The notes below the pieces were generated by a model. That model saw only the letters and a list, made by a program, of their open reading frames with translations, made no database searches and was not told the DNA's origin. The translations under genes were made by a program, and so were the position numbers. A stretch of DNA of 64,000 nucleotides from an uncultured bacterium (GTDB lineage Bacteria > Babelota > Babeliae > Babelales > Vermiphilaceae): assembly GCA_963695335.1 (NCBI GenBank), contig OY968764.1, positions 1,248,001 to 1,312,000 on the forward strand. Reading direction: 5' to 3'. The stretch's first letter is position 1. Each line of letters opens with the position of its first letter. Positions 26,589 to 46,596 of this stretch are shown piece after piece.

Positions 26589-27260
26589 ATGAAAAGAATA
26601 CCACTTCTTCTTTTATCTCTGCTATTTTTATCACCAATACATGCAATGTTATGTATTAAAAAACCATCGTATAATGCTCTTAAATTATATCAATCTCGCA
26701 GCGCATTTCTTTCATCAAAAATGGATGTAGAGCTTGTCATTAGAAAGATTAAAGAGGTGGATAATCACCAATGCTCCTCTGTATACGAAACTAAAAGACA
26801 ATGCGCCAATGATCTTTGCTGCAGACATGCGTACCTTGATGGCGACGTGAATCAAAACATACAAAAGCACTTCTTTAAAAAAATCAACAACCCAATAGAA
26901 TTTGTAGAAAATCTCAGACAAACTGTATATCAATTACGCTTATTTGACGGCTATCTAAAATGGAGATTATTACATTCTGCAAAAATACCTCATTGGCACA
27001 TATATCAAGAAGCGCTTGGATTAATCGCCCATAAAAGCCAATGTATCCTAAACCAAATGCGCATGATATATCACGATGCTCCAGCAAACTGGGATGAACG
27101 TACATATCATCACATAGGCGGCATGATCATAGCGGAAGAAATATTACCCGACCTGATCAAACTTAATCAACATGCAAAAAAGGTAACACAAGAAGATATG
27201 CAACACCTCATAGTTGCAGAAATACAGACAGACCAATCAAACAAAAATAATATAGAATAA
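26589..27260 (+). CDS. Secreted hypothetical protein with C-x4-CC motif
   Basis: PIHA|MLCIKK; QCANDLCC, a motif shared with the 41734-44226 paralogs. Confidence 0.75.
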   Translation: MKRIPLLLLSLLFLSPIHAMLCIKKPSYNALKLYQSRSAFLSSKMDVELVIRKIKEVDNHQCSSVYETKRQCANDLCCRHAYLDGDVNQNIQKHFFKKINNPIEFVENLRQTVYQLRLFDGYLKWRLLHSAKIPHWHIYQEALGLIAHKSQCILNQMRMIYHDAPANWDERTYHHIGGMIIAEEILPDLIKLNQHAKKVTQEDMQHLIVAEIQTDQSNKNNIE

Positions 27261-41510: not shown

Positions 41511-41748
41511 AAAATTGAGCCAAATAGGCCATATTCATAACCTATTTGGCTCAAAATTAGCGATCCCCCTAAAAACAGATTAGTAAGACTAGACACATCT
41601 TGCATAGATAAAAGCAAATCTTTAAAATTCTTTTGATTAACACGACTCAATCGCTATTAAATAAAAAATTCTGCAATTTGGAAGCAATAATTCCAAATTG
41701 CAGAAAATATAGGTTTGAAGCGATTCAATCACACTATTCTTTGTTCTT
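41511..41748. repeat. Two-hairpin non-coding element, copy 1 (copy 2 at 50982-51173)
   Basis: Hairpins TGAGCCAAATAGG/CCTATTTGGCTCA and TTCTGCAATTTGGAA/TTCCAAATTGCAGAA plus conserved linkers CACGACTCAAT and CGATTCAATC. Confidence 0.8.
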
Positions 41749-42396
41749 ATTGTATTCTTCAAAAAGAGCACGCTGCTTGATATAACAATCTTTTTTATGC
41801 CGCAAAAGCCCCGCTATTTTCTTACATTGCTCAGCGGTGATCTTGTCATGAGCCCACAACAATTTTCCTTCTTCTTCCTTGCTCTGCAATTTTTGTAAAC
41901 CTGCGTTTACAGTCATTACAAAATGATGCTCCTGATTAGCATCAGAGAAAAGTTCAACTCTTTTTTTCTGAGCATCATACAGGTCAAGATACTTACAACA
42001 ACGTGGATTGCTACATGGGATTTTTTTAATATATGCAAAAGAACACTCATCACTACCAATTTCTGCAATATCATAATAAAGTTTTTCAGCCCTAAAAGCT
42101 TTTGGGTCACGTACATACTTATACGTTTTATGCACACCTTTACATGCACCACCAATAATATAACATCCAGCAACAGTTGCAACTTGCCCTAGAGCATAAC
42201 CGAGAGGCAAAATGAACATTGCTGCAGCAACAATTTCACCAGCCTCATCAAAATTTCTTTTTTGTATCATAGGACTTGTTACATTGACCCGATGTACAGA
42301 TTTTGGCATCCGCTTGGTAACCAACTGCATTGCAGATACTTCTGATGCAATGATCATTGATACGCACAATCCAAAAAAAATAGTCTTACCATCCAT
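41734..42396 (-). CDS. Secreted protein, C-x4-CC family, with presequence-like mature N-terminus and a TM helix
   Basis: EVSA|MQLVTKRMPKSVHRVNVTSPMIQKRNF; PCSNPRCC; paralog of 43264..44226. Confidence 0.8.
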   Translation of the reverse strand: MDGKTIFFGLCVSMIIASEVSAMQLVTKRMPKSVHRVNVTSPMIQKRNFDEAGEIVAAAMFILPLGYALGQVATVAGCYIIGGACKGVHKTYKYVRDPKAFRAEKLYYDIAEIGSDECSFAYIKKIPCSNPRCCKYLDLYDAQKKRVELFSDANQEHHFVMTVNAGLQKLQSKEEEGKLLWAHDKITAEQCKKIAGLLRHKKDCYIKQRALFEEYNKNKE

Positions 42397-42401
42397 CTGC
42401 T

Positions 42402-43229
42402 TTACTCTCTTGTTTGATTCTTGCCACAGTGCAATAACTTATACTCTTCATCGATACGGCTTAATTTATATGACACAGTACGATTGCCTACCAGAGCGTT
42501 TCTATAATCTATTTTTGCCTGCTCATCAACTATCGCATCTTTATATTCTTTCTCATTTTCATACCATTCACTAATATCATCTCGGATCTCACGAATTTGT
42601 TTGATTTTAGATGTCATTTTAAAATGATCTTCTTTCCAAGTATCAAAGCTATCTTCTAAAATAACTTGTGCCTGATTAAACAAACATGCATTTATATTAG
42701 AAATCATCGAATATAATACTAAACGCTTTGACCTATCTGCATTACAAAATTCATTCAATATAACTCTATACTGTATTAAATCTATATATAAGTCTTTAAT
42801 ATCTTCCAAATATGCAACTCTACCTTTTTTTTCAACATTCTCCAAAAATCTCTGCCTTATTGCATGTGATCTTCGCGCTGCTTGTATATTTTTTTGCATT
42901 CCTAACAACAATGCTCCACCGCAACATATAGGTGAATTACATGCATCTGCTTTGAGAATTCGCTCAGCAAGAAAATTTTCACATTTCTTTGCACCTAATT
43001 CTTTAATGTCTTCATACATTTCTGCTAAATCTTTTGACGTATATAGTGCATCTGAATAAAAACTAACACTATCTTTACCTACTCGAATATCAAAAGGCCT
43101 ACTATTATTTCTTTGTTGAATTTTACAAAAAACATTCGACATGCGCTTAGTTTTGACTATCATCGCATGTGTCACCGACACAAACATCACTGATGCACTC
43201 AATACAAAAAATATATTCTTACATTTCAT
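42402..43229 (-). CDS. Secreted protein, C-x4-CC family
   Basis: VTHA|MIVKTKRMSNVFCKIQQRNNS; ACNSPICC; RBS AAGGAG. Confidence 0.8.
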   Translation of the reverse strand: MKCKNIFFVLSASVMFVSVTHAMIVKTKRMSNVFCKIQQRNNSRPFDIRVGKDSVSFYSDALYTSKDLAEMYEDIKELGAKKCENFLAERILKADACNSPICCGGALLLGMQKNIQAARRSHAIRQRFLENVEKKGRVAYLEDIKDLYIDLIQYRVILNEFCNADRSKRLVLYSMISNINACLFNQAQVILEDSFDTWKEDHFKMTSKIKQIREIRDDISEWYENEKEYKDAIVDEQAKIDYRNALVGNRTVSYKLSRIDEEYKLLHCGKNQTRE

Positions 43230-43263
43230 CTGCTGCTCCTTAAAAAATTAAAAACTTTTCCAT

Positions 43264-44226
43264 TTATTCAATACTACTATGGCTACTTGAAGAACTATCC
43301 GAAGAAAAACTACTATCCCTATATGATTGCGAAGAATAACTCTCCATATTTGACATATACGATGAACTTGATGAACTATCAGAATGGGCAGTTGCACTAT
43401 CACAAATTTGCTTTGCCACATATGCATGCATCATCAACATATTTAAATCGCGCGCAGGATCGTCATTTCTACGGCCATCGTCAGCTTTATCTTGTTGCCG
43501 TGGTGTATGTTGTTGTAGATTACACTCTTGATTATGTTGCTGCTGATTATCATATCGCTGCGTCTTTGGGACCATCAAAGTAATAGATTTAATCTTCTCA
43601 CAATATTCTTTATCGCTCTGTTTTTTTGCTTCAGCACTATCAAAAAATTCATCAGAAAGAGCTATCTGTTTTATATGACAATCTTTTTTATGCTCAAGAA
43701 GACCCATAATTTTTTGATATCCTTCAATATAAATTTTATCTTGAGCAAGTAATTGCTTTGCTTCTTCTTCTTTATTATGCAATTTTTGTAAACCATCTTT
43801 TACCCGTACTAAAAAATCACGTCCCTGATTAATGTCACAAAAAAGTTCAGGTCTTTTTTCATAAGCAAAGAGTGGGTGAAGATTCTTACAACATTGTGGG
43901 TTTTTACACACCTCTTTTTTGATATAAACATTGGAACATCTCTCGCTACCAATGCCTGCAACTTCATTATGTAACCTGTTAGCTGTAATTATCATCTTAG
44001 TAATTGGGCAAGTATTTAGAGCTTCTTCTATACAACAAATAGCCACAGGAACACCAACAAACCATATTAATGCTCCAAAACTTCCCCTTTTTTGCACCAG
44101 GGGACTCATGCTATTCACCCGATACATAGTTTTTGGTATTCGTCTTCTAACCAATTGCATTGCAGATATTTCTGATGCAATCATCATTGATGCACACAAA
44201 CCAAAAAATATATTCTTACCATTCAT
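43264..44226 (-). CDS. Secreted protein, C-x4-CC family, with TM helix and Ser-rich tail
   Basis: Start ATG 44226 after AAGGAGCAGCAG; EISA|MQLVRRRIPKTMYRVNSMSPLVQKRGSF; VCKNPQCC. Confidence 0.8.
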   Translation of the reverse strand: MNGKNIFFGLCASMMIASEISAMQLVRRRIPKTMYRVNSMSPLVQKRGSFGALIWFVGVPVAICCIEEALNTCPITKMIITANRLHNEVAGIGSERCSNVYIKKEVCKNPQCCKNLHPLFAYEKRPELFCDINQGRDFLVRVKDGLQKLHNKEEEAKQLLAQDKIYIEGYQKIMGLLEHKKDCHIKQIALSDEFFDSAEAKKQSDKEYCEKIKSITLMVPKTQRYDNQQQHNQECNLQQHTPRQQDKADDGRRNDDPARDLNMLMMHAYVAKQICDSATAHSDSSSSSSYMSNMESYSSQSYRDSSFSSDSSSSSHSSIE

Positions 44227-44318: not shown

Positions 44319-44759
44319 ATGAAACACACAAAACTTATTGCCATATTTTTTGCCACATACCACATTGCATCTTTTTCATCACAACATCAATCAGCTCCTG
44401 CATTACAAACAATAATGAATAAAATAGTTATGATTCAGCGTGAAAACGCTGAAAATAACCATCAAAGAATCGTAGAGTACTACAATCAATTTCCAAAAGT
44501 ATCACAAGAAGAGATTAATAGATGGGTAGCGAAAAAAGAACGTGAGATTAAAGAGAATCAAGCACAATATAAAAAAGAACAAGAACAACAAGAAATCCGA
44601 TGGCTTCTGAAATATAACCGCAAAAATAGGCATCAGCGCAGCCCTTATCACAAAGCAATCAAAAAAGATCTCCAAAACGATCACCGGAATAGATATAACC
44701 CACACATAAAAACAATCGAGTGTTATCCTACTCGATTGTTACTTGAATTAAAAAAATAG
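44319..44759 (+). CDS. Secreted hypothetical basic protein
   Basis: RBS AAGGT; signal-like MKHTKLIAIFFATYHIASFS. Confidence 0.65.
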   Translation: MKHTKLIAIFFATYHIASFSSQHQSAPALQTIMNKIVMIQRENAENNHQRIVEYYNQFPKVSQEEINRWVAKKEREIKENQAQYKKEQEQQEIRWLLKYNRKNRHQRSPYHKAIKKDLQNDHRNRYNPHIKTIECYPTRLLLELKK

Positions 44760-45480: not shown

Positions 45481-46596
45481 TTATTCACAACGCCCAGCTT
45501 CATGGGCATGATCTCTATCCCACTGGTTAATATACCCTTCCACCATTTGTCGCCGATCAGCAGGAATAGGATGTAGAGGATAAATAATTTCTTTTATTAT
45601 CCTACTATTGAGTACTCTCTCTAGCCTACTATCTGATATTTTATTTTTCTTATAATAGTCTGTTTCATGTTCCTTCCAATATTTTGCAAACTCTTCAAGC
45701 TCTAATCGCGATACAGCATGTTCACACGCAAATGTATCCGCAGGTGCCTCAAACCAATGTTTCGATAAAAATCCACCTAAAACAGCATTGGCCAATGCTT
45801 TTGGTACAATGGCACCAATAGCAGAACCAGATCGCAACATAGTCTTTAAAAATGTTTTTGGTTGCGGTTGAATATTATATAATTTTCTCAATAGTTTAGT
45901 TGCTCCAAAAGATAATGCCTCAACTCCAAGAGGGATTGTTGTGAGAGCATACACATATTTATTACTATCCTCATGAACAATATGACCAAATTCATGATTT
46001 ACAATCATTGATTCTCGAGCGATTTTTGCTTTACATTGAGCAACATTTTGTTTCTCTACATCAATCTGTGATTCTGCAGATTTAATTAATTGGTTATCAG
46101 CACGCGACAAAAGAAAAGATTTAAATATTCCCCTTTTTTCTTTTTGTTGCTTGGCATATTCAAATTCTTTTAAAGCTTGATGAAGTCTTTCTTCTGCTAG
46201 CGGCTGATTGACTAAGGCTTCATGCAATTGATCGCAAACTTCTGAAGAAACTGATACCACACCAATATGTTCATTAGCACGAGCATGAGCATGACGTGAA
46301 TTCTTATGAGTCACTAAGAATATAGGTTTAGAATGAGGCATATTTGCTTGTTTTTTTTGACCTTCAAACCAATCATTAAGAGCTGGTTGCGTGGGCAACT
46401 CTTCATCAAAATCCAATACATTTACTTTTTCTAATGCTTTTTTATAGTTCTTAGAATGATACAATCCAAGAGTTGGCAACGTTGTTACGCCAACAAAACG
46501 AGCTAATTTAAAGACTTTTCCACCCATGGCAAAAGATGGGATCATAAACGTAAAAAGCAGCATTAGAGCTGCATATTGTAAATAACTTTTATTCAT
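45481..46596 (-). CDS. Secreted zinc metalloprotease, M48-like
   Basis: PSFA|MGG; HEFGH, EAPAD and HPIPADR motifs; hydrophobic helices after HExxH. Confidence 0.8.
   Translation of the reverse strand: MNKSYLQYAALMLLFTFMIPSFAMGGKVFKLARFVGVTTLPTLGLYHSKNYKKALEKVNVLDFDEELPTQPALNDWFEGQKKQANMPHSKPIFLVTHKNSRHAHARANEHIGVVSVSSEVCDQLHEALVNQPLAEERLHQALKEFEYAKQQKEKRGIFKSFLLSRADNQLIKSAESQIDVEKQNVAQCKAKIARESMIVNHEFGHIVHEDSNKYVYALTTIPLGVEALSFGATKLLRKLYNIQPQPKTFLKTMLRSGSAIGAIVPKALANAVLGGFLSKHWFEAPADTFACEHAVSRLELEEFAKYWKEHETDYYKKNKISDSRLERVLNSRIIKEIIYPLHPIPADRRQMVEGYINQWDRDHAHEAGRCE

Follow-up and report, generated by a model that had tools for sequence, protein, structure and literature searches.

Predicted unmasking of a mitochondrial presequence-like segment by signal-peptide cleavage in three tandem secreted proteins of a Babeliales relative

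In complex plastids, such as the apicoplast and those of diatoms, removal of a signal peptide unmasks a second, basic organelle-import peptide, and a similar nesting of signal peptide and putative organelle-import peptide is found in the bacterial proteins described here. Ats-1 of Anaplasma, likewise a bacterial protein, enters host mitochondria by receptor-dependent import, driven by an N-terminal signal that is removed inside the organelle (PMC2824752), whilst the Sec-dependent effectors of Candidatus (Ca.) Liberibacter bear signal peptides and in their mature forms reach the host endoplasmic reticulum (ER), peroxisome, chloroplast and nucleus (PMC9844206). Chromulinavorax destructans and Babela massiliensis share with the source organism a large Sec secretome, ankyrin/WD40 cargo and type II secretion, the sole secretion system found in B. 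massiliensis (PMC6561590, PMC4378268); C. destructans associates with mitochondria, replicating in the cytoplasm whilst wrapped by a host mitochondrion, and sheds vesicles (PMC6561590). Here we describe paralogs A, B and C, three tandem genes at 41734–44226 of a 64,000-nucleotide stretch of contig OY968764.1 from an uncultured bacterium (the window, to which unlabelled coordinates refer). We consider it probable that they encode exported effectors of a protist-parasitic member of the Babeliales, which would pass through Sec and type II secretion and be imported by host TOM/TIM23, and the sequence comparisons below largely support the proposal that a Met-initiated mitochondrial presequence is unmasked when the signal peptide is cut off.

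The source genome (G000; other G codes denote compared genomes and L codes loci from them) is a single contig of 1.37 Mb, 94% complete and with a G+C content of 35.7%. Its one signal peptidase I is 80–83% identical to proteins named from Ca. Babeliales and, judged by sequence, the genome is that of a relative of this group. Two ATP/ADP translocases are encoded, and the bacterium probably lives inside single-celled eukaryotes; the known hosts of the phylum are heterotrophic protists (PMC12172432). The type II secretion gene cluster includes two secretins and two secretion ATPases, and no match to the FlhA/SctV and VirB4 families was found in this 94% complete genome. The features of the three genes are as follows.

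43264..44226, minus strand: paralog C, 320 residues (counted from the ATG behind an AAGGAG site); signal peptide, Met23, acid-free segment, short hydrophobic stretch, Cys-rich helical domain and low-complexity tail with a final Glu
44161..44226, minus strand: signal peptide of C, residues 1–22, with AAGGAG upstream; score in our own matrix 6.1 (weak)
44029..44160, minus strand: acid-free mature N-terminus of C, residues 23–66, with a basic presequence-like part, Q-K-R at 44086–44094 and the hydrophobic stretch at 44029–44079
43888..43908, minus strand: C-x4-CC motif of C, with another Cys ten residues upstream
42402..43229, minus strand: paralog B, 275 residues; signal peptide, Met23, presequence-like segment, beta-hairpin and helical bundle, without hydrophobic anchor, Arg-Glu end
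43164..43229, minus strand: signal peptide of B, residues 1–22, with AAGGAG upstream; matrix score 18.8 (strong)
43092..43163, minus strand: presequence-like segment of B, residues 23–46, acid-free, with Q-Q-R at 43110–43118; first 20 residues of low confidence in the model
41734..42396, minus strand: paralog A, 220 residues; signal peptide, Met23, presequence-like segment, long hydrophobic stretch, Cys-rich three-helix bundle, Lys-Glu end
42331..42396, minus strand: signal peptide of A, residues 1–22; matrix score 3.3 (weak), Met23 invariant in 10/10
42250..42330, minus strand: presequence-like segment of A, residues 23–49, acid-free, with Q-K-R at 42256–42264; hydrophobic moment of the first 15 residues z 2.2
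42139..42234, minus strand: hydrophobic stretch of A, residues 55–86, modelled as two low-confidence helices
41995..42015, minus strand: C-x4-CC motif of A, within C118-x9-C128-x4-C133-C134; C204 is a further conserved Cys
41737..41739 (A), 42405..42407 (B) and 43267..43269 (C), minus strand: C-terminal Glu codons

In each paralog a 22-residue signal-peptide-like stretch is followed by Met23 and a basic, acid-free segment. The acid-free run after the predicted cleavage extends over 27 residues in A, 24 in B and 44 in C, with 6, 7 and 7 Arg or Lys, respectively, within the first 27 mature residues; the residue after Met23 is Gln in A and C and Ile in B, and all three proteins contain QKR (A, C) or QQR (B) together with C-x4-CC. 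The first-pass annotation, made from the sequence of the window, had reported precisely such Met-initiated, Arg/Lys-rich, acid-free segments and the shared Cys motif, and both are present. For its premise that signal cleavage exposes the Met, the score in our matrix is strong for B (18.8) but weak for C (6.1) and A (3.3). The same AAGGAG leader precedes B and C, and downstream of A there is a hairpin with a T tail; the three genes therefore constitute one unit. Since the chance of a single acid-free 24-mer is about 0.05 and the paralogs are not independent, the three genes alone are weak evidence; it is the family and genome-wide tests which place the acid-free segments clearly beyond chance.

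When 1.84 billion representatives were searched with a profile, homology alone picked out 56 relatives; the 39 with a called signal peptide and Met were used, and the other 17, fragments or proteins called from a later start, were set aside. The first Asp or Glu of these 39 mature proteins lies at index 14–44 (median 26), and Asp plus Glu make up 0.5% of residues 2–21 versus 13.6% of the body; Arg is raised (10.9% versus 4.7%), as is R/(R+K) (0.52 versus 0.32). Residue 2 is Leu in 17, Phe in three, Met and Ile in one each, and Gln in nine. Basic residues peak at positions 6–7, 10 and 14 and hydrophobic ones at 2–4, 8 and 15, the hydrophobic moment exceeding that of shuffled sequences in 77% of members (mean z 0.7–0.9). 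R-x-x-[ST] occurs 16 times versus 7.2 expected and Q-x-R 17 times versus 3.4. All 15 segments of a low-identity subset (15 of the 32 Cys-core members, with segments <30% identical) are acid-free for 20–44 residues. The family is present in 4/10 genomes of the same genus and in G033, no member was found in other genera among 150 order-level genomes sampled, and a contig scan with a single family protein returned one locus. The family signal peptides end in Ala (14), Ser (14), Pro (9) or Thr (2) at −1, with an aliphatic or small residue at −3. Pro at −1, unusual for signal peptidase I, is thus found in 9/39 family members, and in seven proteins of the genome; signal peptidase I tolerates Pro at this position, and a literature search on the point found nothing.

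Exposure of Met recurs across the predicted secretome. In 84 of 358 held-out open reading frames (ORFs), the residue at +1 of the site ranked best by our signal-peptide matrix, which was trained solely on 133 Met-Glu proteins of the genome, was Met, compared with a proteome Met content of 2.4% and with Met at −3 in 34. At a fixed threshold, just above the score of paralog A, which is therefore not included, the genome encodes 247 Met-exposing secreted proteins (about 20 in the window), of which 144 begin with Met-Glu, 14 with Met-Asp and 89 otherwise. That Met23 is a second start codon was considered and rejected, because Shine-Dalgarno-like words stand before the signal ATG of 123/247 of these genes but before the internal ATG of only 1/247 (0/21 in the presequence-like class defined below). 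A small second residue follows the Met in 16/247, versus 111/425 non-secreted proteins, and the Met therefore appears set up for retention. The Met-Glu/Met-Asp pattern recurs in 400 kb samples, about 25–38% of each contig, of genomes from three other genera (G053, G026 and G046; 42, 64 and 37 proteins). The exposed Met, mostly in Met-Glu, may mimic the N-termini of host-made proteins, with regard to NatB-type acetylation or N-end stability.

The position of the first acid in the mature N-termini has a bimodal distribution. Defined as acid-free for at least 18 residues with a net charge of at least +3, a presequence-like class comprises 21 of the 89 Met-exposing proteins without Met-Glu or Met-Asp, versus 4.3 expected from internal windows (p 1.5e-9). 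A feature outside this selection, Leu, Ile, Phe, Trp or Met as residue 2, distinguishes 11/21 class members from 11/68 others (p 0.003), and a hydrophobic bias at residue 2 is reported for yeast presequences (PMC10482271). R-S-[FL] occurs in 4/21 members versus 0.35 in shuffled sequences. Ankyrin or WD40 domains occur in 0/21 of the class versus at least 35/158 of the Met-Glu/Met-Asp proteins, as counted among the best 25 families listed per search (p 0.016).

Homologs were sought for seven class members unrelated to the family, giving 12 N-termini for analysis; most retain a basic acid-free N-terminus, several with an R-S-F or R-S-Y end, a distant match at L153 being an exception, and R-S-[FY] occurs in 4/12 versus 0.21 expected. 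The processing motif of Acanthamoeba mitochondria, R-x-[YLF]-[AST]-[TS] (PMC4986872), is found in 5/75 pooled N-termini versus 0.75 in shuffled sequences, and in 0/158 Met-Glu/Met-Asp and 0/425 non-secreted proteins; in full it is absent from A, B and C, whose conserved Q-x-R is compatible with R-2 cleavage. So far as the published accounts describe them, presequences cleaved by the mitochondrial processing peptidase (MPP) resemble the segments in length (20–45 residues), Arg richness, lack of acids, hydrophobic residue 2 and an Arg near the segment end; the segments here differ in containing more Lys, in weaker amphipathy, in having the full R-3 motif only in a minority, in arising by cleavage instead of at a translation start, and in their pairing with a C-terminal Glu (PMC7723863, PMC10482271, PMC4986872). 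Since presequence properties are conserved across eukaryotes (PMC5455965), yeast or amoebae would be fair test hosts.

Other signals of the secretome point in the same direction. Ends resembling peroxisomal targeting signal 1 (PTS1), [SA]KL, occur in 6/247 Met-exposing proteins versus 0.2 expected (p 7e-8), CaaX ends in 2/247 versus 0.2 (p 0.02), and starts of Met-Lys-Arg, which resemble nuclear localisation signals (NLS), in 6/89 versus 0.3. PTS1, CaaX and NLS-like motifs are signals read in the eukaryotic cytosol, and for this reason their presence supports arrival there. The Met-Lys-Arg class has acids soon after the start and lacks Glu ends, and its cargo includes WD40, ankyrin and leucine-rich repeat domains.

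The individual proteins are recorded here. The [SA]KL proteins include those at G000:175446-176066, 229487-230353, 486253-486528, 1051423-1052418 and 1146832-1147920, and one such protein, assigned by row order of the listing, matches an OMP decarboxylase domain. CaaX-like secreted proteins lie at G000:1084919-1085644, 1185172-1186155 and 363594-363842 and in L124, one of them with ankyrin and F-box-like domains, and the Met-Lys-Arg mature starts at G000:73961-75802, 106319-107296, 334593-335441, 635217-636182, 820859-822202 and 1022022-1023485. A likely nuclear effector, the secreted protein at G000:1032711-1033406, exposes Met and has several C2H2 zinc fingers. At L119:12140-12697 (G026) the signal peptide and Met are followed by a stretch of the form R-A-x5-H-L, a PTS2-like pattern.

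The class carries a second, unselected mark at the opposite end of the protein. A C-terminal Glu is found in 14/21 class members versus 10/226 other Met-exposing proteins (p 7e-12) and 42/425 non-secreted ones, and with a relaxed class set in 16/24 versus 12/251. It ends 40 of the 56 family representatives, 26 of these with Lys-Glu or Arg-Glu, and 13/19 presequence-like loci from other genomes versus 0/13. In a tandem cluster at 737–740 kb of the genome, Glu ends 3/4 basic-start but 0/3 acidic-start genes; small coiled-coil-like genes with presequence-like or acidic starts are arrayed in tandem at G000:737341-740556 and 743449-745482. In G053 and G046 a larger share of the whole Met-exposing set ends in Glu (9/41 and 6/36), so the link may be limited to the source lineage. 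An overlapping ribosome-binding site is an unlikely origin of the Glu, as 9/14 codons are GAA and the downstream bases mostly lack an adjoining start; such a site may contribute only at the B/A junction. An acidic C-terminal end protects from tail-specific proteases, and shielding of this kind is one candidate role that we infer for the Glu; docking on clamp-type tetratricopeptide repeat (TPR) receptors such as Tom70 is another. Such receptors, present in amoebae, recognise the acidic tails of chaperones (PMC7583919). The genome encodes an S41 tail-specific protease, whose gene adjoins one cluster of presequence-class genes; an S41 gene lies beside one class gene in the G000 tandem arrays just named and beside the cluster in L164.

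The AlphaFold model of A has residues 1–29 unstructured, two low-confidence helices at 30–62 and a confident helical bundle (pLDDT, the predicted local distance difference test, 80.5); the model of B is of low confidence over its first 20 residues and shows a beta-hairpin and a larger helical bundle (pLDDT 86.5, predicted TM-score 0.84). The presequence-like segment thus appears separable from the fold, being unstructured or of low confidence ahead of a confident bundle in both models. The first-pass annotation had two of the paralogs continue into a single hydrophobic helix and proposed a stop-transfer route to the inner membrane. A hydrophobic stretch is indeed present in A and C (19-residue mean hydropathy up to 1.9–2.1) and not in B, although in A it is modelled as two helices with pLDDT of 55–68. 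It adjoins the basic segment, as stop-transfer would require, but the stretches of both A and C contain Pro, which disfavours stop-transfer arrest, and only 12/39 family members have such a stretch, the other 27/39 lacking an anchor; stop-transfer for A and C is therefore possible but doubtful. Four Cys residues are nearly invariant across the family. A twin CX9C substrate of Mia40 was rejected, as there is one C-x9-C (C118, C128), followed by x4-CC and the distant C204, and the spacing varies from 8 to 16.

Foldseek found no match for the A and B models at E 0.001, and the best hits in a VIA-align comparison of these models (Z 9.1, root-mean-square deviation (rmsd) 3.3 over 99 aligned residues; Z 8.8, rmsd 4.8 over 159) are generic helical bundles. 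A match to the MIC60 bundle (Z 7.0, rank 31) lies within this background and was not used. ESM Atlas gave no usable match for A and, for another class member, only DnaJ-type leads under 0.8; Pfam assigned no family to A or B, and C had one match, below cut-off. The cargo is a Cys-stabilised helical bundle without catalytic motif or specific fold match, most likely, as our best guess, a binding or scaffolding module. Separately, the class member at G000:688129-689466 has a C-terminal J domain and is a candidate partner of mitochondrial Hsp70. An ORF for an enoyl-CoA hydratase, with Met behind a signal-peptide-like N-terminus (G000:521479-522132), was rejected as a presequence case, its domain beginning at residue 16; model positions 4–178 of 251 are covered, and it is possibly truncated.

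In the proposed route, Sec would export the precursor and signal peptidase I would cut before Met23, as the sequence pattern suggests. The mature protein would cross the outer membrane most likely by type II secretion, the machinery genes for which are present, or else in vesicles, and the cytosol-read signals elsewhere in the secretome suggest that it then reaches the host cytosol. There TOM/TIM23 could read the Met-initiated, acid-free, Arg-rich segment as a presequence, and MPP would probably cut after the Q-x-R-x site. B would then be a soluble matrix protein and A and C might be retained in the inner membrane, with the C-terminal Glu accompanying the presequence as a second mark. The two-step delivery originally suggested for these proteins left out the crossing of the outer membrane and the vacuole. 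To a wider reading we would give roughly even chances: that in Babeliales signal cleavage gives hundreds of secreted proteins a host-like Met, that these are sorted by a host address code (Met-Glu for the cytosol, Met-Lys-Arg for the nucleus, SKL for the peroxisome and CaaX for membranes), and that in a single genus a mitochondrial class has come in addition, some 20 proteins per genome, marked by the presequence and by a C-terminal [KR]-Glu as a second, hitherto undescribed sorting or docking signal.

Several results weigh against mitochondrial import. The full R-3 motif, R-x-[FYL]-[SA], is present in none of A, B and C; R-x-[FYLI]-[ST] is not enriched in the family of 39 (2 versus 1.7 expected), and several motifs were tried, shorter forms not being enriched in the pooled N-termini (R-x-[YLF]-[AS], 5/75 versus 3.1). 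The QKRNF, QQRNNS and QKRGSF segment ends had been taken as an R-2/R-3 cleavage pattern, which survives as a loose R-2 rule but not as the full R-3 motif. An amphipathic helix is favoured by the 39-member family and by paralog A (z 2.2), but the hydrophobic moment does not exceed that of shuffled sequences in the class of 21 (z 0.3, p 0.07–0.24), nor is it raised in the 12 N-termini of other families (z 0.13), and in the low-identity subset both it (z 0.44, p 0.17) and R-x-x-[ST] lose significance; the family members are related, so that p-values overstate. R/(R+K) is not raised in the class (0.33 versus 0.31), and 54/425 N-termini of non-secreted proteins also satisfy the charge filter, so that the class stands out less against this control. 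The enrichment is absent from the 400 kb samples of G053, G026 and G046 (1/20, 1/28 and 0/15), and the class accordingly looks lineage-restricted. None of the class cargo has a recognisable mitochondrial function, one member having a J domain, and we know of no counterpart of the C-terminal Glu in mitochondrial import. Type II secretion exports folded proteins and disulfides could hinder mitochondrial import; given a VKOR-like oxidase in the genome, disulfides are a possible hindrance. The claim that bacterial signal peptidase unmasks a host mitochondrial import signal nonetheless gains from the family composition, the genome-wide excess, residue 2, the Acanthamoeba motif, the lack of internal ribosome-binding sites and the other host signals, whilst the results on amphipathy and on the R-2/R-3 pattern are mixed.

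Other explanations of the same observations have to be set beside import. The basic N-terminus and C-terminal Glu might be unrelated to mitochondria and instead be read by the bacterium's own export or quality control, be it by a secretin devoted to such proteins, in the packaging of vesicles or as a shield against tail-specific protease. The tight co-occurrence of marks at opposite ends (14/21 versus 10/226) is not predicted by a presequence alone, and the genome has two secretins and an S41 protease gene beside one class-gene cluster; we nonetheless judge this explanation rather unlikely, as the R-S-[FY] and R-x-[YLF]-[AST]-[TS] ends, the hydrophobic residue 2 and the depletion of cytosolic repeat cargo are left unexplained by it, and bacterial reading of the marks could hold together with mitochondrial import. 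Alternatively, the segment might be an uncleaved basic amphipathic anchor on anionic membranes, either the mitochondrial surface or the vacuole, without import. Its composition suits membrane binding, a hydrophobic stretch adjoins it in A and C, the canonical R-3 is missing from the three proteins, and C. destructans remodels the mitochondrion from outside with membranes intact (PMC6561590). Near-exclusion of acids over 20–44 residues of variable sequence, MPP-like ends in other families and the absence of a hydrophobic anchor from 27/39 family members make anchoring unlikely.

That the segment addresses some other compartment, as a plastid transit peptide or a nuclear or nucleolar signal, is very unlikely. 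Basic runs can serve as nuclear signals, but there is a separate Met-Lys-Arg class, with early acids and no Glu end. Acid-free, Ser/Thr-rich basic N-termini are common to plastid transit peptides, which however tend to start with Met-Ala and have little N-terminal Arg (PMC7723863), whereas here the starts are Met-Leu or Met-Gln with Lys or Arg at 6–7, and the known hosts are heterotrophic protists (PMC12172432). Chance or an annotation artefact, be it basic N-termini common in an AT-rich genome or Met23 as second start or gene-fusion scar, is largely refuted and scarcely credible: such an origin draws on the 54/425 non-secreted N-termini which pass the charge filter, on two of the three signal peptides being weak and on Pro at −1 in 9/39, but a ribosome-binding site precedes the internal ATG in only 1/247 (0/21 in the class), the architecture is kept in 39/39 family members, and the unselected Glu end repeats in other genomes (13/19 versus 0/13).

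Further features of the window near the three-gene unit are these.

41669..41705: terminator-like hairpin, 15 pairs and a T tail, after the three-gene unit, minus strand
41515..41554: second terminator-like hairpin
26589..27260, plus strand: fourth, distant paralog, with signal peptide, Met, 26 acid-free residues, the same Cys core and a Glu end
45481..46596, minus strand: unrelated class member, with signal peptide, Met, 32 acid-free residues and a Glu end; M48 peptidase match weak (E 0.01, below cut-off)

Downstream of the unit, behind the two hairpins, lies an archaeal-type ATPase (PF01637; 39991-41445). A small secreted gene on the opposite strand (44319-44759) neighbours a family gene in G008 and G001 too. 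In G010 (L007/L012) a homolog of paralog B is interrupted by a transposase-like ORF, and its downstream piece retains the Arg-Glu end.

In the parasitic phylum Babelota, secreted proteins without known relatives number in the hundreds and there is no type III or IV system; in one striking case the host mitochondrion is remodelled, with no effector known for this. If mitochondrial import is correct, this genome provides about 20 candidate mitochondrial effectors and a rule for finding others, Met exposure across the secretome is explained, Sec and type II secretion would be capable of delivering proteins to the host cytosol and organelles, and bacterial manipulation of mitochondria becomes testable by simple reporter fusions. 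As a mark, the C-terminal Glu is new and would come unexpected to a specialist.

A literature search covering few subscription papers found no description of a Sec signal peptide hiding a Met-initiated presequence, and each of the related systems differs in some respect. In Ats-1 the signal forms the primary N-terminus of a type IV secretion substrate (PMC2824752), whereas here a Sec signal peptide precedes the segment, which starts at a second Met, and neither VirB4 nor FlhA/SctV was found in the 94% complete genome. The accessible text of the Liberibacter study (PMC9844206) lacks the string 'mitochondri' and describes no Met-exposed presequence class, and N-terminal fusions to green fluorescent protein were used. 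Neither Met at +1 nor organelle signals are described in the accessible text on C. destructans and B. massiliensis, the words 'methionine' and 'targeting' occurring 0 times in that of PMC4378268 (PMC6561590, PMC4378268). The bipartite signals of complex plastids are eukaryotic, act via the ER and lead to the cell's own plastid, unlike a bacterial Sec signal followed by an address for the mitochondrion of another organism. By analogy, the predicted architecture resembles Ats-1 in its presequence, the Liberibacter effectors in its export and complex plastids in its nesting, and is a member of none of these systems.

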